Positions 7,172-49,052 of a stretch of 64,000 nucleotides of DNA are shown here, piece after piece (positions within the stretch are counted from its first letter, which is position 1; each line of letters starts with the position of its first letter). Made by a program: the position numbers and the translations under genes. The notes beneath the pieces are model-generated. The model had not been told where the DNA came from and did no database searches. It saw only the letters and a list, made by a program, of their open reading frames with translations. Source of the stretch: Candidatus Magasanikiibacteriota bacterium (GTDB lineage: Bacteria; Patescibacteriota; Patescibacteriia; Magasanikbacterales; UBA922). The DNA is taken from contig DMXO01000004.1 of NCBI GenBank assembly GCA_003482855.1, forward strand, positions 58,224-122,223, given 5' to 3'.

Positions 7172-7215
7172 ACAAGTGACACTTGACTAATACGGATTTT
7201 TATAGTATATTATGC
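7172..7215 (+). promoter_or_regulatory. Sigma70-like promoter (TTGACA/TTGACT ... TATATT) for GC-rich gene 1
   Basis: TTGACT at 7187, 17-nt spacer, TATATT; AT-rich, unlike the GC-rich CDS it drives. Confidence 0.5.
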
Positions 7216-7220
7216 CATTA

Positions 7221-7268
7221 AAAAAGAACGAAATAGTCTTATTTTTTGTAGTACTATTTCGCTCTTTT
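7221..7268. promoter_or_regulatory. Imperfect 16-bp inverted repeat AAAAGAACGAAATAGT / ACTATTTCGCTCTTTT (operator-like), followed by a short GC hairpin and strong SD
   Basis: Read directly; one mismatch; motif AAAAAGAACGAAA recurs at 8153 upstream of GC-rich gene 2. Confidence 0.45.
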
Positions 7269-7344
7269 TACAGTCTACCTGACAAACAGTAATTTCCCCT
7301 TCACCTATGAAAGGTGACGGGCTCAAGAGAAGGGGGTTTCGTAG

Positions 7345-8001
7345 ATGCTTCAGATCCACGACAGAAAGATCTCCGCGGTTCGCGCGGGGATGCTCCAGGG
7401 TCACTGTGGGGCCATGACCCCACTGTTCTTGACCACACATGATGGTCTTCGTGTGGTGGAGTACCTCCAAGGCATCGCGCGTTCGTTTTCGTGGTCGGAG
7501 GTGCCGTCGCTCCTGGATCAGATCACGGCTCTTCGTCTGCCCGCGGACGACGAGATGTTCGGTCGCTGGCTCGACCAGATCGAGCCGACCGGGCGCTCGG
7601 AGATCACGATCGCACGTGGTCAGATCAGAGGCGACGTTTACGTCGCCGCGTTCCCTGTGCGTGAGGGTCGTCCGATGACCGACGCGCCGATCTACTCCTT
7701 GACCCAGGCCATAGAGTTCGCCCGGGTTTGGTTCTCGGAGGGGAGGATCACCACGGCCGAAGTCATCCACATGATCAAGGGTCTGCACGCCCTCGGGCTT
7801 GGCACGCAGGCCCCGCAGGCGGTCCTTCGGGTGTTCAACACCGACGAGATCATCTCTCGTGCCCAGCTGGGCCTCCGGGTCTTCGCGGCGCGGGAGTTCA
7901 CCGGTGACGATCTCGCGCTCATGGAGCAGATCGCGGTTCGGAAGCGGTGCTTCAAGACCGCATTCCCGGGCCGGGAGTACGAGGCATTTCCTGGGCTGTA
8001 G
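7345..8001 (+). CDS. Hypothetical protein, GC-rich cassette 1 gene A (218 aa)
   Basis: Strong G/C bias at third codon positions on + strand, SD AGAAGGGGG 6 nt upstream of ATG; opposite-strand ORFs are GC artefacts; no recognised motif. Confidence 0.6.
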   Translation: MLQIHDRKISAVRAGMLQGHCGAMTPLFLTTHDGLRVVEYLQGIARSFSWSEVPSLLDQITALRLPADDEMFGRWLDQIEPTGRSEITIARGQIRGDVYVAAFPVREGRPMTDAPIYSLTQAIEFARVWFSEGRITTAEVIHMIKGLHALGLGTQAPQAVLRVFNTDEIISRAQLGLRVFAAREFTGDDLALMEQIAVRKRCFKTAFPGREYEAFPGL

Positions 8002-8124
8002 TCAGGCGAGAGTCTCGCGCTAGATGTCGTACCTGCTGAAGAGTGGGTATGGTAGAGGCGCGTGGCTTGGCGTGGCTGGCGATGTGCGATTCTGTCGCGC
8101 GTCGTCGGCCGGGCCTGACTCTTG

Positions 8125-8141
8125 TGCACATTTAAAAATGT
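8125..8141. promoter_or_regulatory. Perfect palindrome CACATTT-aa-AAATGTG upstream of GC-rich gene 2, followed by AAAAAGAACGAAA motif
   Basis: Read directly; 7-bp arms, 2-nt spacer; lies in an AT-rich intergenic segment between two GC-rich CDSs. Confidence 0.4.
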
Positions 8142-8253
8142 GTAGAAGAGTCAAAAAGAACGAAACGAGTTCATCAAAGTGGATTATTTTGGTTCTTTTG
8201 TGTTTTGTGTCATTCGCTAACTTCCTGCCCGTGGGCAGGTGAGAGGAGGACTC

Positions 8254-8796
8254 GTGAAGAAGAAGCTGTATCTCCAGACCGAGTACAACCCGCGTGGTAT
8301 CGTGGGGTGGTTCGAGGTCTGGAGCGAGAGGGGGCAACTCCTCTCGAAGACCCTCAAGTTCGGGGATATCGCGGCGGCGCGTCTCATCGCCCTGCCCATG
8401 CTCGTCGATGAGGGTCACGAAGACCTCGTCGCCGAGGGGTCACGGATCATCGACGTGCTCATCGAGTGGCTCCGAACGAACCAGATGGGGGGGACCGTCA
8501 CCTTCTCGTTTCAGGACGGCCGTCCGAAGATCGAGGAGAAGTACGTCCCTAACCGTCGACCGGAGCCTTCTCCGTCGAGATTCTCGGCCGTGATCGGCGG
8601 TCGAGACGGTCTTCGGTTCCGACCAGTCGGCAGCGGCGTCCCTGAGCTCACGCTCGGTGGGCTTTTCCGCTACCTCCGCCAGGCCGGCGTGGCCACTGAG
8701 GTCGACGAGAGGCGGTGGCGGGTTGCCGTCGGCGACGGGGACCCGGAGGACGAGGACATGTCCGGGGGCGGCGACGACCCGGCGTGTGGCGACTAA
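8254..8796 (+). CDS. Hypothetical protein, GC-rich cassette 1 gene B (about 180 aa)
   Basis: SD GAGAGGAGGA at 8241-8250 then GTG at 8254 (ORF track starts at alternative GTG 8239); GC3-biased; hairpin CCTGCCCGTGGGCAGG just upstream; acidic Gly/Asp-rich C-terminus. Confidence 0.55.
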   Translation: MKKKLYLQTEYNPRGIVGWFEVWSERGQLLSKTLKFGDIAAARLIALPMLVDEGHEDLVAEGSRIIDVLIEWLRTNQMGGTVTFSFQDGRPKIEEKYVPNRRPEPSPSRFSAVIGGRDGLRFRPVGSGVPELTLGGLFRYLRQAGVATEVDERRWRVAVGDGDPEDEDMSGGGDDPACGD

Positions 8797-8931
8797 GTGT
8801 CTCTTGTCGCGTCTGCTACGGCGGACGCGACGGAGCATGAGACTACCACAACAATGGCCGGCGCGTGTGATTCATTCGCACGTCGCCGGCCAAGGAGTTC
8901 AGTATATATTTGGGATAAAAATATATAGTGA

Positions 8932-22423: not shown

Positions 22424-22440
22424 ATATTTATGGTTGGAAT

Positions 22441-22475
22441 GGTAGTCGGGTACGCGAGGTGCGTACCCGACTACC
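22441..22475. terminator. Perfect 15-bp stem hairpin GGTAGTCGGGTACGC-gaggt-GCGTACCCGACTACC just 3' of the rSAM gene
   Basis: Read directly; no strong U-run follows, so possibly an attenuating or processing hairpin rather than a full terminator. Confidence 0.5.
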
Positions 22476-22478
22476 TGC

Positions 22479-23576
22479 TTAATCCTCCTTGAGGTGGGGT
22501 AGCGGGCACAGGGTGTATCCGCCACAGGGGTCACCCATACCCTCGACCGTCGCGCGGCAACCACCGCGGCACTTGTCCCAGCGGTCGCACGAGCCACATG
22601 GCTCGCCGACGGTCTCCTGGGTCAGGGCGAGGCGCGAGCAGATCAGGTCGGACTCGTACGCCGCCCGGATGGGGTCTGGGTCGTCGACGTGACCGAGCGG
22701 GACCGTGGAGTTCGAGCACGCACGGATGCTTCCGTCGACTGCGAAGTATAGCCCCTTGTCGTAGAAGGGACATGAGCCGAACAGGTGGGGCATGAGTACT
22801 GCGGCTCGTGGGTTTTTGAATTCCGGCCAGAGGCCGTCGTCCATGGCCGAGGCGGAGGACTGCATGTAGTCGCGTCCCTGGTGCTCGAGCGTGCGGATCA
22901 AATCCGCAAGCTCCTCGGGCGTCGGCGCGACCTCGAAGTACTCCGGTCCGACCGGCTCGCCCGAGCCCATGAGCTCGAGATCCACACCGATTCCCCTCAT
23001 CCTGCAGAACCGGATGTAGTCGGGCACGAGCGCGATGTTGTCTTTGCGGATCAGATTCTGGAGCCGGAACAGCGGATCGCGATATCCGACCCCGCAGAAC
23101 ACGTCGATCGCCGTGCGCATCTTGCGCGCCATGTCGACGGTCGATCCAATCATCTGTACCTGGAGGCGTATTTGGTCGGGGTCGTTCGAGTCGGCGATGT
23201 TCCACTTGCCGGTGATGTGCACGCGGCGCTCGTAGAGCCAGGCGGCGAGTTCGGGCGTGATCGAGATCATGTTGGTGAACACCCACGGTTTGATGCCACG
23301 GGAGATGAGGATCTCGATGTATTCCTTGAGGTGGGGCCACAGGAGTGGCTCTCCGCCGAGGATGTCCATGGTCTCGAGCTCAGCGCCACGGTATTCGCGA
23401 CAGAGGTCGAGAATCCGAACCGCCTGGTTGAGTGTCATTGATCCGTTGCCCAGCTTGTCACGGCGCACCATATAGCAACCAGGGCATCGGAGTTGACAGC
23501 GCGAGGTCACTTCGATGATGCCGTAGCGTAGGCCGGCCCCGGTCTTCTCTTCGTAGCGCTTGCTGATGTCAGTCAT
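22479..23576 (-). CDS. Radical SAM enzyme with C-terminal SPASM/twitch domain (peptide/protein-modifying rSAM maturase-like), GC-rich
   Basis: CxxxCxxC (CQLRCPGC) near N-terminus; C-terminal CGSCDRWDKCRGGC Cys cluster; start at MTDISKRYEE (ATG 23576) overlapping the stop of the upstream 119-aa gene. Confidence 0.8.
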   Translation of the reverse strand: MTDISKRYEEKTGAGLRYGIIEVTSRCQLRCPGCYMVRRDKLGNGSMTLNQAVRILDLCREYRGAELETMDILGGEPLLWPHLKEYIEILISRGIKPWVFTNMISITPELAAWLYERRVHITGKWNIADSNDPDQIRLQVQMIGSTVDMARKMRTAIDVFCGVGYRDPLFRLQNLIRKDNIALVPDYIRFCRMRGIGVDLELMGSGEPVGPEYFEVAPTPEELADLIRTLEHQGRDYMQSSASAMDDGLWPEFKNPRAAVLMPHLFGSCPFYDKGLYFAVDGSIRACSNSTVPLGHVDDPDPIRAAYESDLICSRLALTQETVGEPCGSCDRWDKCRGGCRATVEGMGDPCGGYTLCPLPHLKED

Positions 23577-23928
23577 GTCGTTCTCCTTGGTTTTGGCACC
23601 ATGCTTCCATTTCGTGCATGATGCGATTCCATTCCTCTTCGTTTCCTGAGCGGTGGATGTACTGGTAGTTGGGAGTATCTTCGACAATTTCTATTTTTTT
23701 CCGTATGTTCTCCCTTCTTTCTCGAGGTCGTTTGTCGTCCACAGAAGGCCAACATCGGTTGAACCATGTAGCGAATACCACTTCGCCGTCCTGTTTGAGG
23801 ACAACGATGTCGTCGCCGTGTCCATAAAAGAGTACATTGACCTCAGTGGTCGGATCCTCTTTGATCAGACTAGCTACGGTTTGCCATGTCTTATTCAAGC
23901 TTGGCAGATCCCAGATGCTTTTCTTCAT
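23569..23928 (-). CDS. Hypothetical 119-aa protein, translationally coupled to the rSAM-SPASM gene
   Basis: SD AAGAGG 6 nt upstream of ATG 23928 (MKKSIWDL...); stop overlaps rSAM start (ATGACTGA); intermediate GC. Confidence 0.55.
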   Translation of the reverse strand: MKKSIWDLPSLNKTWQTVASLIKEDPTTEVNVLFYGHGDDIVVLKQDGEVVFATWFNRCWPSVDDKRPRERRENIRKKIEIVEDTPNYQYIHRSGNEEEWNRIMHEMEAWCQNQGERHD

Positions 23929-30279: not shown

Positions 30280-30313
30280 TTTGTGCCTAATTATTTGAAC
30301 ACCTAATCAAAAA

Positions 30314-30338
30314 AACCGGCTCGCGTGAGCCGGTTTTT
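30314..30338. terminator. Bidirectional terminator AAAAAACCGGCTC-gcgt-GAGCCGGTTTTTT
   Basis: Perfect 7-bp stem flanked by A6 and T6 between convergent genes. Confidence 0.8.
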
Positions 30339-31192
30339 TATGCTGCTTTTTTTTCATCTAGATCCGCATGTGTGCGGGTTTGTTCAGTGTATGTCGTATT
30401 AATGAGAATTTTTATCATGCTTATTATATCATTGTACAACTCGCCATCTTCCCTTTTTAAATCATCGAGTGTGCCTGTGAAATTATCCTCCTCGAGTATC
30501 TCTAGGCTACTTTGGAATAATTGAAGTGCCTCATTGATTAATTGTTCGTGAATTTTATCTCTTACTTTTTTTATATCATAGACCTTTTTCCCGCCTTCTA
30601 TTTTTTTGATCCATTCTTGCAATATAATAGTTACTGGTCGGTTGTGTTTTGTTTCCATTTCTCTTAGCTCTGCTTCTATTTGAGCGATATATTCATCTGA
30701 CGGCGATGTCTTTTCTTGTATATGGGTATCGTCTTCTGTTATATACCTTTCTGTTTTTGCATGTCGTATATATCTCTTAGTTTTTTTGATGAATTTAGCA
30801 ATCGCTTGGATGATATCTTCATAGAGTTCAATATCTCTTTGTGATAGCTCACGCATTGTTATGTCGGGGTAATCCGATTCTATTATTTCCAACACACCGG
30901 TAAGACCACCCAAAATATTTGATTTTAGATGTATATCGAGATCTGACATATTAACTTCATTCAGCCAATATACCACTATAGTTTGTGCGTCGTACCCATC
31001 ATGGTCATATTGCTCTTTCAATGTATGTTTGATAGCGCGTGTTATTTCATTTTCTAATTGTCGTTCAAATTCTTTTTTTTGTCTGAAATCTTCCTGCTTT
31101 TCTGTTTTAGTTTTGAATTTTTTATAATACAAATCATCGGGGTTGTATCCAGACTCATCTGGCTCATGGTAGTCTCCCCACTCTGTTGGCAT
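30338..31192 (-). CDS. Hypothetical acidic, Glu/Asp/Tyr-rich protein
   Basis: 284 aa, highly charged, no recognised motif; downstream of recA. Confidence 0.45.
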   Translation of the reverse strand: MPTEWGDYHEPDESGYNPDDLYYKKFKTKTEKQEDFRQKKEFERQLENEITRAIKHTLKEQYDHDGYDAQTIVVYWLNEVNMSDLDIHLKSNILGGLTGVLEIIESDYPDITMRELSQRDIELYEDIIQAIAKFIKKTKRYIRHAKTERYITEDDTHIQEKTSPSDEYIAQIEAELREMETKHNRPVTIILQEWIKKIEGGKKVYDIKKVRDKIHEQLINEALQLFQSSLEILEEDNFTGTLDDLKREDGELYNDIISMIKILINTTYTEQTRTHADLDEKKAA

Positions 31193-35494: not shown

Positions 35495-35699
35495 AGATTA
35501 TAGGTCATGCATTGTGAAACATGTAGCAAAAAATAAATACATATCAAATGTAATCATATTGTAACATATTTTTTTGTATTGAGAAATAGAATTTATTTTT
35601 GACTGTTGAACAAAAAATAAGGACAAATTTTTATACATATATTACTGAGATGAAAAATAAGAAGATATTTGGGATATTAAAAAACAATCGCTTTTGAAG

Positions 35700-35725
35700 C
35701 AATTGTTTTAATTATAACTTCCAGA
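35700..35725 (-). terminator. Terminator AACAATcGC-ttttgaa-GCaATTGTT + U6 downstream of the GC-rich 114-aa gene
   Basis: Read directly on the - strand. Confidence 0.5.
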
Positions 35726-35811
35726 CCTTGGTACTCTCTGCAAATAAGTTACCACGTAAAGAAATTTTATTCCCACGTGGTTTACAAAGAATATGCAGGG
35801 GTCTGGAAGTC
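35719..35811. repeat. 11-bp perfect inverted repeat ACTTCCAGACC / GGTCTGGAAGT enclosing 71 bp that contains a CCACGT...ACGTGG sub-palindrome
   Basis: Read directly; lies between the stop of the GC-rich 114-aa gene and its terminator. Confidence 0.5.
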
Positions 35812-35850
35812 GGAACTTCATGCGCGCACCCCCGAGTAGCGCGCATCTCT

Positions 35851-36195
35851 TCAGACGCCGGTCTCTTCGTACCAGTGTTGCGCGACCGAGGCCGCGTGTT
35901 CGAACCGCTTGGCCAGATCCCCGGCCAGCTTCCTGCCCTCTCGGGACAACCCCCGCAGACGGGCGTGCAGCCTGAGCCGACTGGCCATGTTGTGGGTCAG
36001 CCGGAGGATCTCGAGCGATGAACCACTCTCAATCTCCGGCTTGAGCTGTTCACTGTAGAGGTTGTCTGCGTCGTACCAGATCGCTTTTGCGATCTTGTCA
36101 TGACCGGCTTGCTCTACTGCTCGAGCGAGATCCTCTAGCCTCTTACAGGCTCTCTCGAGAGCTCTTGCCCAGCTTTTCACTGCGCCCTGATTCAT
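35851..36195 (-). CDS. Hypothetical GC-rich 114-aa helical protein (cassette 3)
   Basis: GC3-biased coding on - strand, predicted all-helical, own AT-rich promoter (TTGACT...TTATGT) at about 36270-36300. Confidence 0.5.
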   Translation of the reverse strand: MNQGAVKSWARALERACKRLEDLARAVEQAGHDKIAKAIWYDADNLYSEQLKPEIESGSSLEILRLTHNMASRLRLHARLRGLSREGRKLAGDLAKRFEHAASVAQHWYEETGV

Positions 36196-36379
36196 GCTTG
36201 TTCCAATCCACCCCGTCGTGGGGTTGTTGTGGGACTTCTGGGTTTAGTTTCTGAGAACAAAACACGATAACATAAACATAAAGAGAGAGAGAAGTCAATG
36301 CTTATTATTTTAAAAATAAATTGTGGATAACTTTGTTAGTAAAATAAGCCAAATTTTTATTTAGAATTTTAATTTTTGC

Positions 36380-36560
36380 TAGATTAAGCTAAAAAGTAAC
36401 CATGCTTGACAATTACTTATCCACCTGCTCAATGTTTGACATTGTTTTGTTTTTCCTGTATTCTAAACCTGCGTGTAAAACTTCTAGAAAACTGTCAAAA
36501 ATTGCTTAAATAAGCACAATTCTGGTATTATCGTCCTCCATTCGCACTTGCAAGGGCGAA
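36380..36560 (+). promoter_or_regulatory. rpoB upstream region with tandem sigma70-like promoters (TTGACA x2; TTGCTT...TATTAT) and ~200-nt leader
   Basis: 540-nt non-coding stretch before rpoB containing consensus hexamers; no ribosomal-protein genes upstream. Confidence 0.4.
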
Positions 36561-36734
36561 TTATCCGGATCACACATGGCTAGAGATTTCTCCCAAAAAT
36601 AACGTTTTTTCATTATCCTTTTCTTAAAAAGGAATTTTTTGTTATCTAGCTACATATCACTGGTATACAACATACGAAATATACAAAACGCGTTTTTTAT
36701 CTTTCGTATTTTGTCTACATAATCTCTTTGCCCT

Positions 36735-39700
36735 ATGTCTGTATACAAACGTCAACCGCTCAAGACGCTTGAGCGAAAGTTTTTTACTCCTTTGCGTGAT
36801 GCTATCGAGACTCCGGATTTGATTGAAGTACAAAAGTCTTCTTATGCATGGTTTTTTGAAGAGGGTCTTCGTGAACTTTTTGATGAATTGTCTCCTATTA
36901 CAGATTTCACTGGGCGTGACCTTGAGTTGTATTTTGAAGATTATTATTTGGACGAGCCCAAATTTGATGAGGTGGTGTGTCGCAACAAAAATATTACGTA
37001 CGAATCACCATTGCGTGTAAATGTCCGTCTCACCAATAGTCGTACAGGTAAAAGTGAAAAACAGGAAATCTACCTCGGTGATGTGCCTCTCATGACTGAT
37101 CGTGGCACGTTTGTTGTTAATGGTATCGAGCGTGTCGCCGTGTCTCAGCTTATTCGTAGCGCTGGTGCTTTTTTCACAGCAGAAGCTGTACGTGGTAGAC
37201 GTTTTTATGGAGCAAAGATTATCCCTAATCGCGGTGCTTGGATCGAAATTGAAACTGATCAAAATAATGTACTGTGGATCAAGGTAGATAGAAAACGTAA
37301 AGTTGCAGCTACTTCATTATTGCGCGCTTTTGGATACAAGAATGATGAAGATATCAAAAAGTTATTTGAAGATGTTAACACACATCCTAATATTGATTTC
37401 ATAGATAATACGATCAAAAAAGATGCTGCACGTAGTGAAGAGGAAGGTCTCATCGAAGTGTATAGACGTATTCGTCCTGGCGATCTCGCAACTGCAGACA
37501 ATGCAAAAGGTTTGATCCATGCAATGTTTTTCAATTTTGATAGATATGATCTTGGTAAAGTTGGTGTATATAAATTTGCAACAAAATTTAGTTTGAATCT
37601 GACACAAGAACAGTATGACAATAAAGAAGAACGTGTACTTTCACCCGAAAAATTGGTCATGGTGCTCCGAGAAGTTGTGCGTCTCAATGTAACGCAAGAT
37701 GAACCAGATGATATCGACCACTTGGGCAATAGGCGTGTCCGTGGTGTGGGTGAGCTCGTACAAAATCGTTTCCGCATTGGTCTTGCTCGTATGGAGCGTA
37801 TCGTGAAAGATCGCATGAGTACCATGGAAATGGATAGTATTGTTCCGAACAAGCTTATCAACGCACGCCCTGTGATATCAGTCATGCGTGAATTTTTCAT
37901 GAGTTCACAATTGTCTCAGTTCATGGATCAGGTAAATCCTTTGGCAGAATTGGAACACAAGCGTCGTATCTCTGCACTTGGTCCAGGTGGTCTCTCTCGA
38001 GATAGAGCAGGATTTGAAGTGCGTGATGTACACAAGACTCACTACGGTCGTATATGTCCTATTGCGACTCCAGAAGGTCCAAACATTGGACTTGTCGGTC
38101 ATTTATCTACATTTGCAAAAGTGAACCGTTTTGGTTTCCTTGAAACTCCTTATAGAAAGGTAATACACGTGATACCAAATGAAGCTCGTTTTACTGAAGG
38201 AGAAGTTGCGTATGAAGATGTTGTACATATAGTCAAAACAGGCGATGTTATCACGAGTGCTCTTGCGAAAAAACTTGAACAAGAAAAAAAGATTGCACAC
38301 ATAAAAGTAAAGCCACGCGTTACTCATGAGATTATATATCTTAATTCATTTCAAGAAGAGAGAACTACAACTGCAAGTGCAACGGTACCTCTTGATGAAA
38401 AAGGATACTTTGTCGAAGATCGTGTGCCAGCTCGTGTGCATGGTGAAGCACAGGTAATCAAAGCTGAAGAAGTAGAATATGTTGACGTGGCGTCAAACCA
38501 GATATTGTCTCTCGCAACAAGTCTTATTCCATTTCTTGAACATGACGATGCGACCCGTGCACTCATGGGTACCAACATGCAACGTCAATCTGTGCCTTGT
38601 ATTAAACCAGAGCCACCACTTGTAGGTACTGGCGTAGAACGTGCAGCAGCATTGAATAGTGGCTATGTGGCAAGGGCTCCTGGCGCAGGTGAAGTAACAT
38701 ATGTAGACGGTGGTAAAATTGAATTTACTGATACCAAAGGAAAAATATATACCTATCCTATTTCAAAATACGTACGATCTAATGCATCAAGTAGTATAAA
38801 CCAACGCCCGACAGTTGTACCAGGACAGAAACTCAAAAAGGGTGATCCAATGACTGATGGTCCTTCTATCAAGGATGCAGAGCTCGCGCTTGGACAAAAT
38901 GTGCTTGTGGCATATATGGTATGGGATGGATACAACTATGAAGACGCTATTATCATTTCAGATAGACTTGTTAAAGATGATCGCTATACATCAGTACATA
39001 TTGAAGATTACACGACCGATGTACGAGAGACCAAGCTTGGTGAAGAAGTAGTTACGAGTGATATACCAAATGTGGGTGAAGAAAAATTACGCAATCTTGA
39101 TGCAGAAGGCATTGTGCGTATTGGCGCTGAGGTACATTCAGGAGATATATTGGTTGGCAAGATCACACCGAAAGGCGAGACAGAATTGACACCAGAAGAA
39201 CGTCTTCTCCGTGCTATTTTTGGTGAAAAAGCTCGTGATGTGCGTGATTCTTCACTATATCTCGAACATGGTGAAAAAGGAAAAGTTATTGATGTAAAAG
39301 TATTTTCTGCAGAAGCAGGAGACAAACTCCAACCAGGTGTTATCAAGCAAGTACAAGTAACTGTCGCAGACATGCGCAAAATTCAAGTAGGTGACAAGAT
39401 GGCTGGTCGTCACGGAAACAAAGGTGTCATCTCTCGTGTCGTACCTGCAGAAGATATGCCATTTTTGGAAGATGGTACTCCTGTTGATATTATCTTGTCA
39501 CCACTGGGCGTCGTGTCTCGTATGAATTTGGGTCAATTACTTGAGACTCATCTTGGCCTTGCAGCAAATGCGCTTGGTTACAAAGCGGCAACCCCAGTAC
39601 TTAATGGTATACACGAAGAACAGATAGAAGAAGAACTCAAAAAAGCAGGATTCCCTGTAGATGGACAATTGCAGCTCTGTGATGGACGTACGGGTGAGCC

Positions 39701-40187
39701 ATATGATCACAAAACCACAGTGGGGTACAACTACATGCTCAAACTCAATCATATGGTGGAAGACAAGATTCACCAACGTTCTATTGGTCCTTATAGTCTT
39801 ATTACCCAGCAACCACTTGGTGGTAAAGCACAATTCGGTGGACAGAGATTTGGGGAAATGGAAGTGTGGGCACTTCAAGCATATGGAGCAGCACATACAT
39901 TGCAGGAAATTTTGACGATCAAATCAGACGACGTACCAGGACGTGCAAAGGCGTACGAAGCTATTATAAAAGGTGAACCAATTACCAAGATCAATCTCCC
40001 CGAGAGTTTCAATGTATTGGTACGAGAAATGAAAGGTCTTGGCCTTGATGTGGAGCTTCTCAAAGATGTGAATGGCGAATATATACCAGCAGAAGAAGTA
40101 AAGATTAAGATGGAAGAGATACGAAGACAGGATTATGGTACGACACTCGAGACAGAAAGTACCAAACGTGGACAGACTGAAGAATAA
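36735..40187 (+). CDS. rpoB: DNA-directed RNA polymerase subunit beta
   Basis: 1150 aa, highly conserved RpoB blocks throughout. Confidence 0.97.
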   Translation: MSVYKRQPLKTLERKFFTPLRDAIETPDLIEVQKSSYAWFFEEGLRELFDELSPITDFTGRDLELYFEDYYLDEPKFDEVVCRNKNITYESPLRVNVRLTNSRTGKSEKQEIYLGDVPLMTDRGTFVVNGIERVAVSQLIRSAGAFFTAEAVRGRRFYGAKIIPNRGAWIEIETDQNNVLWIKVDRKRKVAATSLLRAFGYKNDEDIKKLFEDVNTHPNIDFIDNTIKKDAARSEEEGLIEVYRRIRPGDLATADNAKGLIHAMFFNFDRYDLGKVGVYKFATKFSLNLTQEQYDNKEERVLSPEKLVMVLREVVRLNVTQDEPDDIDHLGNRRVRGVGELVQNRFRIGLARMERIVKDRMSTMEMDSIVPNKLINARPVISVMREFFMSSQLSQFMDQVNPLAELEHKRRISALGPGGLSRDRAGFEVRDVHKTHYGRICPIATPEGPNIGLVGHLSTFAKVNRFGFLETPYRKVIHVIPNEARFTEGEVAYEDVVHIVKTGDVITSALAKKLEQEKKIAHIKVKPRVTHEIIYLNSFQEERTTTASATVPLDEKGYFVEDRVPARVHGEAQVIKAEEVEYVDVASNQILSLATSLIPFLEHDDATRALMGTNMQRQSVPCIKPEPPLVGTGVERAAALNSGYVARAPGAGEVTYVDGGKIEFTDTKGKIYTYPISKYVRSNASSSINQRPTVVPGQKLKKGDPMTDGPSIKDAELALGQNVLVAYMVWDGYNYEDAIIISDRLVKDDRYTSVHIEDYTTDVRETKLGEEVVTSDIPNVGEEKLRNLDAEGIVRIGAEVHSGDILVGKITPKGETELTPEERLLRAIFGEKARDVRDSSLYLEHGEKGKVIDVKVFSAEAGDKLQPGVIKQVQVTVADMRKIQVGDKMAGRHGNKGVISRVVPAEDMPFLEDGTPVDIILSPLGVVSRMNLGQLLETHLGLAANALGYKAATPVLNGIHEEQIEEELKKAGFPVDGQLQLCDGRTGEPYDHKTTVGYNYMLKLNHMVEDKIHQRSIGPYSLITQQPLGGKAQFGGQRFGEMEVWALQAYGAAHTLQEILTIKSDDVPGRAKAYEAIIKGEPITKINLPESFNVLVREMKGLGLDVELLKDVNGEYIPAEEVKIKMEEIRRQDYGTTLETESTKRGQTEE

Positions 40188-44118: not shown

Positions 44119-44140
44119 TTTTGTAGAAATTTAAAAAACT

Positions 44141-44166
44141 CCCCGTAAAAGCGGGGAGTTTTTTGA
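44141..44166. terminator. Bidirectional terminator AAAAACTCCCCG-taaaa-GCGGGGAGTTTTTT
   Basis: Perfect stem with flanking A/T runs between rpoC end and convergent gene. Confidence 0.8.
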
Positions 44167-47243: not shown

Positions 47244-47320
47244 TCATCTTTTGATATTATATGCAGTTCCCTACACAGTGTCTGGGGGAAGATCTTTACA
47301 AAAGGAAAAAGGAGGAGGCC

Positions 47321-48955
47321 ATGAAGGCTTTCATCGTTGCGTTGATCTCGGCGTTTTGGCAGCTGTTCGGGTCGCATGGGGTTCGGGTTGCCTTGATCCA
47401 GCCGGTGCCACGGCTCAGGTCAAAATCTTTGGGAATTTTCAAGTCCCCGGAGAGTATTCAGGCCCTCGCGGGCCAGCTCGAGGCATTCGGATACAACGTG
47501 CGGATGTACCACTCATCCACAGGCTGGGGCATGATGATCAGGCTCCTGTTATTCAACCCTAACGTGGTCGGGGTCAGTACTATGACCCCAAATTTCCTCG
47601 AGGGGAAGCGGATCGCTCAGCTCCTGAAGCTGTGGCGACCTCGTCTTCCCATTGTGCTCGGAGGCTGGCATGCCTCGGGCGCGATCCAGGCTCACCTCCA
47701 TGGGCAGGAGAGCGAGAGTCTTGGGGAGATTCTCAACCCGAACTCGCCATTCGACTACGTCGTGGCGGGCGAAGGGGAAGAGATCTTCCCCAGGCTCATC
47801 GCGAGCCTGCTCGCGGGGAAGGAGGTCGAAGCCGAACCCGGCGTTAGCATCTTCCGCAATGGGGAGATCCAAGTCGGCGGCTCAACCCCGAGGATTACCA
47901 ACCTCAGGGAGATTGCTGAGCCCTCGTGGAGCGGACTCAAGATTAAGCGCTACCGAGACAAACGTTCCGGAGCGCTCGATCTGAGCGTCCACTTTAACCG
48001 ATCGTGTCGGTTTCAGTGTGCGTTCTGCTCAACCCCCACGGTGTACGGCCATGGGGTGAGGGTGACGCCTGCCCTGCAGGCGTTCGCCTACTTGAAAAGT
48101 GTGGTGGTGACCCACCGCCCACAGGTCATTACTTTCACCGACGAGGACTTCTTCGCCCACATGTCGTGGGTAGAGGAGTTGGTCAGCCTCCTCGAAACCG
48201 ACAACCTCGCAAAGCAGTTTGGAGTGTCGTTTGATACTTTTGCGAGCATCAACGACATCCACCGGCTCCGCAAGGCCGGCAAGGGATATTTCCTCGATCG
48301 TATGCGGGCGGTCGGGTTCGGAAGCTTCACGATCGGGGTTGAGAGTTTCAATCCCAACATCCTCCTTGCTTACAACAAGGAGATGATGATCCTCCCGACG
48401 ATGAGCCGGGAAGAGCGTGGGACCTACACGGGACTCGACAACGATCAGAAGAAGCGCGCACTCGTCACTCATTACCGCAAGCGGACCCAGGAAGCGATCA
48501 ACTTCGCTTCCGAACACGGCCTGCTGGTAGTCGGCGACTACATACTCGGCAACCTCGGCGAAAGCGTGGAGGACGTGCGAGCGGGTTTCGAGATTTTCAA
48601 AAACCTCGAAAACCTGCTTCTCGCATACATCCCTGTCTTCACACCGTTCCCGGGCACCAAGATCTGGGGCGACGCCTACTCGTCGGGTCTGCTCCCGCGC
48701 AACCCTGACGGAAACATTGACTGGATGCGCTTCAATGCATCAGCCGGGGCTCTCAACCTCGGTTACGACATCGGAGCGCTCCGCAATGAGCTCGAGATTG
48801 AGTTCTACACGTCCAGCCGCTACCGGCGAGACATGCTGAAAAACTTGGAGAGCACCCCTGCTCTCCGTGGCCTGTTCGTGGGCCGCTTCAGCTATCTCGG
48901 CCGACTGTTTCCCGGCGACGTCCGCGTCCGGGAAATGATCCAGCTACTGGGCTGA
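47321..48955 (+). CDS. B12-binding-domain radical SAM enzyme (class B rSAM, methyltransferase-like), GC-rich
   Basis: N-terminal cobalamin-binding Rossmann-like region (VVGVSTMTP...IVLGGWHAS), radical SAM CxxxCxxC (CRFQCAFC); start at ATG 47321 after SD. Confidence 0.75.
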   Translation: MKAFIVALISAFWQLFGSHGVRVALIQPVPRLRSKSLGIFKSPESIQALAGQLEAFGYNVRMYHSSTGWGMMIRLLLFNPNVVGVSTMTPNFLEGKRIAQLLKLWRPRLPIVLGGWHASGAIQAHLHGQESESLGEILNPNSPFDYVVAGEGEEIFPRLIASLLAGKEVEAEPGVSIFRNGEIQVGGSTPRITNLREIAEPSWSGLKIKRYRDKRSGALDLSVHFNRSCRFQCAFCSTPTVYGHGVRVTPALQAFAYLKSVVVTHRPQVITFTDEDFFAHMSWVEELVSLLETDNLAKQFGVSFDTFASINDIHRLRKAGKGYFLDRMRAVGFGSFTIGVESFNPNILLAYNKEMMILPTMSREERGTYTGLDNDQKKRALVTHYRKRTQEAINFASEHGLLVVGDYILGNLGESVEDVRAGFEIFKNLENLLLAYIPVFTPFPGTKIWGDAYSSGLLPRNPDGNIDWMRFNASAGALNLGYDIGALRNELEIEFYTSSRYRRDMLKNLESTPALRGLFVGRFSYLGRLFPGDVRVREMIQLLG

Positions 48956-49052
48956 GATGCCCAGTTTACATAGTTCTTTTCTCCCACGGGCAATTGTGGG
49001 TATACTCAAACTGGAGGATGATTGCCCCGTCCTCCCACTGATTATCATTTTT

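Follow-up and report, generated by a model that had tools for sequence, protein, structure and literature searches.

How a small GC-rich gene, encoding a protein of 114 amino acids, came to lie between ftsK and rpoB, and what the long inverted repeat behind it represents, are the questions raised by this locus. The DNA analyzed is a stretch of 64,000 nucleotides (hereafter the window) from an uncultured groundwater Candidatus Magasanikbacteria bacterium, a member of the candidate phyla radiation with ~39–40% GC. Within the window, ftsK (35494–33131, minus strand) and rpoB (36735–40187, plus strand) are divergently transcribed and separated by an intergenic region of 1240 nt; recA and rpoC are further housekeeping genes in the surroundings of the gene, termed ORF114 here. 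Read along the minus strand, the intergenic region consists of an AT-rich flank with a promoter-like site, a GC-rich island holding ORF114, three consecutive hairpins (A, B, and C), and finally the ftsK promoter. The initial annotation of the sequence had described a stand-alone GC-rich unit lodged between ftsK and the upstream region of rpoB, a description that is borne out by the analysis reported here, which also marks the composition of the unit as foreign. Taken together, the evidence indicates that the unit is probably a recently acquired single-gene accessory cassette of ~0.65–0.7 kb, located in a hotspot of horizontal transfer and equipped with a stack of hairpins that would terminate transcription ahead of the ftsK promoter.

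Comparison with relatives reveals the empty site. In the two closest ones (L005 and L075), whose RpoB N-terminus is ~89% identical to that of the window, ~100 nt separate the conserved rpoB block from the ftsK promoter region, as opposed to ~750 nt in the window. Extra DNA in the window therefore comprises the gene together with hairpins A and B and part of the AT-rich flank. Relative to L005 and L075, this inserted block of ~0.65–0.7 kb extends from 35606 to 36320 (minus strand); its boundaries are approximate (±30 nt), the AT-rich flanks being difficult to align. The native right-hand boundary is formed by the ftsK promoter (TTCTCA-16-TG-TACAAT, 35558–35585, minus strand), which is conserved in relatives and whose ATATGYTACAAT is invariant in four organisms. 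At the native left-hand boundary lies TGTGGATAA (36323–36331, plus strand), a sequence conforming to the DnaA-box consensus and delimiting the conserved rpoB regulatory region on its distal side; it is invariant across 17 aligned relatives, and the insertions found in relatives start downstream of it. The initial annotation had proposed, among other readings, the footprint of an integrated miniature element. Of this proposal, integration stands, the block of ~0.7 kb being an insertion by the empty-site comparison, whereas the miniature element does not, as set out below.

The site has received other DNA in other lineages. Loci of relatives were fetched via FtsK, and rpoB and ftsK were found as divergent neighbors in 40 organisms, 16 of which have a minimal gap of 440–660 nt and 24 an expanded one. 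A GC-rich block at least 15 GC points above the mean of its own locus is present in 13 of the 40. The contents of the gap differ and include a NUDIX hydrolase (L007), a His_Phos_1 protein (L009), an msrA-like ORF in the opposite orientation (L006), an apparent truncated transporter fragment (L073), and several orphans. Variable gap content was likewise observed in L017, L032, L034, L043, and L069, among others. Across the lineage of Candidatus Magasanikbacteria, the rpoB–ftsK gap acts as a hotspot for insertions: an empty site in L005 and L075, deviant composition, and differing content in other lineages, the features by which a genomic islet is recognized, are all found here. The databases searched yielded neither a donor of ORF114 nor a homologue with which a conflict between gene and species phylogeny could be shown; its horizontal origin is therefore argued from composition and absence from relatives rather than from phylogeny.

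A jump in composition as abrupt as that at the edges of the island could also have been produced by an assembly chimera or by contaminating GC-rich DNA, and one short contig (L004) indeed shows a different left junction. This contig, the fourth to cover part of the locus, measures 593 nt, stems from another sample, carries ORF114, and breaks off in the right arm of hairpin B; at its opposite end, the initial 33 nt (ATTTTAAAAGCCAGAAAACCGCTGATAGACAAC) diverge from the window upstream of 36360. The 33-mer is absent from the window and its 24-nt core from the other loci and from viral contigs, and the junction may be either a true variant or an assembly artefact. Both junctions are, however, crossed with identical sequence by three assemblies of different origin (L001, L002, and L003; sources JGI, NCBI, and ENA). 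Moreover, the AT-rich regulatory flanks of ORF114 fit a functional unit, and similar islands occupy the same site in 12 other organisms, which renders a chimeric or contaminating origin extremely improbable.

The native DNA adjoining the left boundary shows several features of its own. The rpoB upstream region (36321–36734 in the window; also L005, L075, L026, and others) is conserved across at least 17 Magasanikbacteria. Within the 330–420 nt nearest to rpoB, the invariant TGTGGATAA is accompanied by tandem TTGACA promoters, by a conserved block that is transcribed, and by a T-run hairpin. The transcribed block (~36520–36585) takes the form of CTGG and CCGG elements enclosing a variable hairpin, with one covarying closing pair, and the conserved hairpin with its T-run lies at ~36612–36645, ~90 nt ahead of the rpoB ATG. 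The region, which has no match in Rfam, may represent a leader, an attenuator, or a small RNA. A palindromic motif, TTGGCT-N6-AGCCAA (with variants of the type GCTTA-N-TAAGC), occurs at 36341–36400 and 36510–36530 as well as in L005, L017, and L033, with two or three copies ahead of rpoB in several relatives, and may represent the operator of a regulator. Directly upstream of the rpoB start, an imperfect palindrome of 56 nt (36663–36718) is found, whose overlapping arms of 32 nt are 88% complementary.

Composition profiles and the sequence itself delimit the GC-rich island to 35811–36240 (minus strand), that is, 430 nt of 60–66% GC with sharp edges. GC content calculated over 200 nt peaks at 66.5% in the island, compared with 39–40% for the locus as a whole. 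The island is almost filled by ORF114 (35851–36195, minus strand), which opens with an ATG and is present in the list of open reading frames, and the GC-rich gene for 114 amino acids named in the initial annotation is thereby confirmed. GC-rich intergenic regions in AT-rich genomes are often structured non-coding RNA genes, and the same could be suspected here, with ORF114 as a spurious reading frame: stop codons are scarce in GC-rich DNA, so long chance ORFs arise easily; the protein has no homologue; and the island folds somewhat better than shuffled sequences on both strands (z = −2.9 and −3.7). Similar folding scores on the two strands are, however, what is expected of inverted repeats in DNA and not of a strand-specific RNA. 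Furthermore, the GC content of ORF114 at the three codon positions (0.64/0.45/0.70) follows the same pattern as in the other three GC-rich islands of the window, including bona fide coding ones, and the coding-type order GC1 > GC2 < GC3 with a single stop is confined to frame 0 of the minus strand. GC3 reaches 0.70 in ORF114, in contrast to ~0.30 in the native genes ftsK and rpoB. The composition of the protein is helix-forming (rich in A, L, R, and E, with one P) rather than dominated by P, G, and R as in a random GC-rich frame, its fold is predicted confidently by AlphaFold2, and a search of Rfam, at gathering score as well as at E-values up to 10, returned nothing above noise. A non-coding RNA gene at this position is accordingly improbable, and the island is best regarded as a coding one. 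A second gene of coding type was not found within its 430 nt.

With respect to expression, the initial annotation had credited ORF114 with a promoter of its own. A scan for consensus sequences does place a promoter-like site (TTGACT-18-TATGTT, 36269–36298, minus strand) in the AT-rich DNA 5′ of the island, but matches to the promoter consensus occur in this AT-rich stretch at the rate expected by chance (4 found versus 3.5 expected); the match thus stands, while its status as the promoter of ORF114 is weaker than had been claimed. ORF114 may be transcribed from this site. The spacer of 18 nt contains a (TC)5.5 run (36279–36290), slippage in which would alter spacer length; the run shows no length variation among the four assemblies.

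The island of ORF114 has counterparts elsewhere in the window. Three further islands of 58–65% GC lie among housekeeping genes at 7200–8900, 22440–23700, and 47260–49000. They contain two orphan ORFs (218 and 185 amino acids) and two radical SAM genes, one with an Fe-S cluster domain and the other of the B12-binding type, each gene being followed by strong GC-rich hairpins. The radical SAM enzymes, encoded by two of these islands, give significant Pfam matches, and GC-rich islands in this genome are therefore coding DNA. The four islands are 12–14 kb apart, with housekeeping genes between them, and have no boundary sequence in common. For the B12-binding radical SAM gene of the fourth island, the nearest homologue (67% identity; L091, 4001–5572) resides in a 61% GC island with a GC3 of 0.83, in a different genome of 38% GC and in a different neighborhood, and more distant homologues in candidate phyla radiation genomes (L092 and L094) have 46–47% GC. 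This distribution suggests a pool of GC-rich genes that moves among candidate phyla radiation genomes, and the pattern seen for the fourth island is consistent with a GC-richer pool as the source of a recent transfer, after which the sequence drifted toward host composition. Acquired DNA is more often AT-richer than its host. Acquired DNA that is GC-richer hints at a GC-rich donor pool, possibly the organisms that serve as hosts or GC-rich relatives. A full-text search of the literature for GC-rich islands in genomes of the candidate phyla radiation or Magasanikbacteria retrieved nothing relevant.

The protein encoded by ORF114 is basic (pI 9.2), hydrophilic, and soluble. When AlphaFold2 was run on the single sequence, an up-down four-helix bundle was obtained with high confidence (pLDDT 86.9, pTM 0.78), in agreement with the all-helical protein that had been predicted before any structure was modeled. 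Sequence searches returned no family. A word-indexed search of 5.8 billion clusters retrieved ORF114 itself as the sole hit, an exhaustive phmmer search of 1.84 billion representatives added one spurious repeat protein, and no match was obtained in Pfam, PHROGs, PADLOC, NCBIfam, or the sequences of the PDB. Neither phmmer nor tblastn revealed a relative among the other island ORFs and the fetched loci, and Foldseek found nothing among viral structures at E-values up to 0.001. The fold resembles generic up-down four-helix bundles such as single-chain Rop, plant invertase/PME inhibitors, de novo designs, and Avd. Membership in the Avd family (PF05635) was considered and rejected: a family sequence match together with an adjacent reverse transcriptase and its template/variable repeats would be expected, and this combination is not seen for ORF114. 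On a helical wheel, the five histidines point away from the hydrophobic face, and a buried metal site is therefore unlikely. Fold and charge weakly favor a small binding or adaptor protein, acting on nucleic acid or on another protein, over an enzyme.

An immunity protein or antitoxin had been among the roles suggested at the outset, and ORF114 might by extension be one half of a toxin-antitoxin, immunity, or anti-phage defense module. It is small, fast-evolving, and horizontally acquired, it lies in a variable region, and antitoxins and immunity proteins are commonly helical bundles. Yet the 430-nt island offers no partner gene, the neighbors are ftsK and rpoB, the defense-related and general family collections mentioned above are without a match, and an Rx4-6H motif of the HEPN type is missing from its usual position. 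Such a role is unlikely for ORF114, and the proposal of an immunity protein or antitoxin is not upheld. As a natural protein without relatives that is nonetheless folded confidently from a single sequence, ORF114 provides a convenient test case for work on orphan genes.

Downstream of the stop codon, the DNA is highly structured. The 191-nt region 3′ of ORF114 folds with −74.5 kcal/mol (z = −8.4), and none of 200 shuffled sequences folds as well. The first element, hairpin A (35820–35847, minus strand), starts 4 nt past the stop codon, with a stem of 8 bp that is rich in GC (ATGCGCGC...GCGCGCAT) and without a U-run; GC-rich hairpins of this type also follow the genes of the other islands. It is succeeded by hairpin B (35717–35810), an imperfect palindrome of 94 nt with ~38 bp and a host-like GC content of ~38–41%, again without a flanking U-run. 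Its arms, ACTTCCAGACC (35717–35727) and GGTCTGGAAGT (35800–35810), are 11 nt long and 100% complementary, and the interior is likewise self-complementary, so that the entire 94 nt form one long imperfect hairpin. The 100-nt window containing hairpin B ranks as the fourth most structured in the 64 kb after correction for GC (z = −5.1). These data confirm the 11-bp inverted repeat with a palindromic interior that had been noticed in the initial annotation, with two amendments: the spacer between the arms measures 72 nt instead of 71, and the repeat does not follow the stop immediately but begins 40 nt downstream of it, after the separate hairpin A.

The third element, hairpin C (~35679–35709), reads AAAACAATTGCTT-CAA-AAGCGATTGTTTT with further T behind it and is organized as a bidirectional intrinsic terminator of native type. 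Its 13-nt stem is flanked by A- and T-runs and combines the stem-loop and U-run by which intrinsic terminators are defined, a combination absent from hairpins A and B owing to their lack of a U-run. The terminator hairpin of the initial annotation (35681–35709) is hence real at the sequence level. Native terminators at 30310–30339 and 44133–44164 share the same design of A-run, stem, and T-run. Hairpin C itself may be native, since a similar hairpin is found just upstream of the ftsK promoter in L005, which lacks the island. In the window, ~100 nt separate hairpin C from the ftsK promoter. Hairpin B is located between the stop codon and this canonical terminator, a position that fits the structured 3′-untranslated region envisaged as one possibility from the beginning.

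Strong hairpins also accompany the hotspot islands of other organisms. They lie at the 3′ edge of the island in L073, L069, L043, and L017; in L049, L051, and L040 they are found at island edges whose position relative to the gene was not assigned. L069 even reproduces the order seen in the window: a GC-rich hairpin comes first, an AT-rich palindrome next, and a canonical terminator last. The simplest reading of these recurrent hairpins is that they represent the 3′ ends of acquired transcription units. For hairpin B, the best reading is a single-copy structural element of the 3′ end and not a member of a repeat family. At ~38 bp and without a U-run, however, its stem is far longer than that of a normal terminator, and hairpin C would suffice on its own; as the stem exceeds what termination needs, hairpin B may additionally have a role at the level of DNA.

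The initial annotation had also suggested that the repeat belongs to an element resembling a MITE. Hairpin B could be a MITE- or REP-like element, or the footprint of one, that was inserted beside the gene or carried in with it. It possesses perfect 11-bp terminal inverted repeats around an interior of 72 nt, its composition is unlike that of the adjacent GC-rich DNA, and the hexamer AACTTC occurs on either side of it (35716–35721 and 35814–35819). The search for further copies covered the 64 kb of the window (from an assembly whose longest contig measures 239 kb), ~1 Mb of related loci, and viral and metagenome contigs. The arm is single-copy in the window even when one mismatch is allowed, nhmmer queries consisting of the hairpin or of the complete insert retrieved nothing but themselves from all fetched loci (~1 Mb), and the arm-gap-arm pattern has no match in viral contigs. 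In metagenome contigs, 14 matches to this pattern were obtained, none of them being the locus of the window itself; they are unrelated palindromes that differ in interior and GC content. Target-site duplications are not convincing either. The 6-nt AACTTC repeat, which extends into the palindrome, lacks significance, and a flanking direct repeat of 20 nt is at chance level (43 of 1000 shuffles are as good); the left copy of the latter is part of the native palindromic motif TTGGCT-N6-AGCCAA upstream of rpoB. Over the sequence covered, a mobile repeat of this class is accordingly an unlikely explanation of hairpin B, and the proposal of a MITE-like element is not supported. Uniqueness of the repeat in this sequence and lack of conservation of the ORF in related genomes, two findings that the initial annotation had counted against its own reading, were both obtained; a third, a match of the protein to a housekeeping family, was not.

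Hairpin B might, alternatively, be a recombination site, with the GC-rich genes and their 3′ hairpins constituting cassettes of an integron-like or HUH-type system that recognizes hairpins. The layout, an ORF followed by an imperfect palindrome of 94 nt, recalls attC in both length and placement, several of the hotspot islands in relatives carry a long hairpin at their 3′ edge, and the window contains four islands with one or two genes each. Nevertheless, this is very unlikely to be the case. On the coding strand, the hairpin ends read ...CCGACTTCCAGACC and GGTCTGGAAGTTATAAT, neither of which matches the R″ (RYYYAAC) or R′ (GTTRRRY) box; sequence comparison finds no relation between the hairpins of one island or organism and those of another; and the islands are scattered among housekeeping genes instead of being arrayed. 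Among 20 neighboring ORFs, Pfam detects no integrase (Phage_integrase), transposase, or phage domain, and hence neither a tyrosine recombinase nor a transposase. Likewise, blastn returned nothing from collections of phages and plasmids, and a scan of viral sequences with a 27-mer of the island and the 33-mer of L004 found nothing. There is an equally slight chance that the pattern recurring in Magasanikbacteria, one GC-rich foreign gene with a long hairpin of unrelated sequence behind it in the promoter-distal gap between core genes, reflects an unrecognized process that captures single genes by structure and not by sequence, for instance by integrating them at a hairpin or terminator or beside one. 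Hairpin B would then be a recombination scar, and these episymbionts with reduced genomes would be sampling genes of GC-rich partners by this route.

The preferred reading therefore remains an accessory cassette acquired by transfer, and a sequence of steps can be proposed for it. The cassette sits in the sole dispensable part of the divergent rpoB–ftsK region, between the rpoB promoter and leader block on one side and the ftsK promoter on the other. The highly conserved flanking genes would supply homology for recombination, and the gap would tolerate extra DNA. Once in place, the cassette would operate as a minus-strand transcription unit of its own, running from the AT-rich promoter-like flank through the GC-rich ORF114 into the three hairpins. 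Of these, hairpin A would have arrived with the foreign DNA, hairpin B would contribute the long 94-nt structure, and hairpin C would be the A/T-flanked terminator typical of the host. Together, they would end and stabilize the transcript and keep read-through out of the ftsK promoter ~100 nt further on. On this reading, the locus records ordinary gene acquisition, not a new mobile element. Taken alone, ORF114 is one more orphan accessory gene from which little follows; the hotspot and the GC-rich nature of the acquired DNA are more noteworthy. The rpoB–ftsK gap could serve as a marker locus for gene flow into the reduced genomes of Magasanikbacteria.

Several known systems share individual features with this arrangement. 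MITEs and REP/ERIC palindromes are similarly intergenic, ~100 nt long, bounded by terminal inverted repeats, and found in 3′-untranslated positions; they differ in that hairpin B is single-copy in the sequence searched and lacks a clear target duplication. Integron cassettes also comprise an ORF followed by an imperfect palindrome of ~60–140 nt, but R-box consensus sequences, IntI, and an array are missing here, and the hairpins of one island bear no relation to those of another. The morons of temperate phages correspond to the cassette as single genes of deviant GC content that are inserted between unrelated genes together with a promoter-like flank and a terminator. In contrast to them, ORF114 resides among chromosomal housekeeping genes, with no prophage and no similarity to phage. 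Hotspots or flexible genomic islets between conserved core genes are a concept derived from the comparative genomics of bacterial pangenomes. The inserts described here are unlike such islets in being single genes of 0.4–3 kb that are GC-richer than the host, and in occupying a gap between divergent promoters of essential genes. Common to both are two core genes as bounds, variable content of atypical composition, and a mode of insertion that needs no integrase if the homology of the flanks is used.
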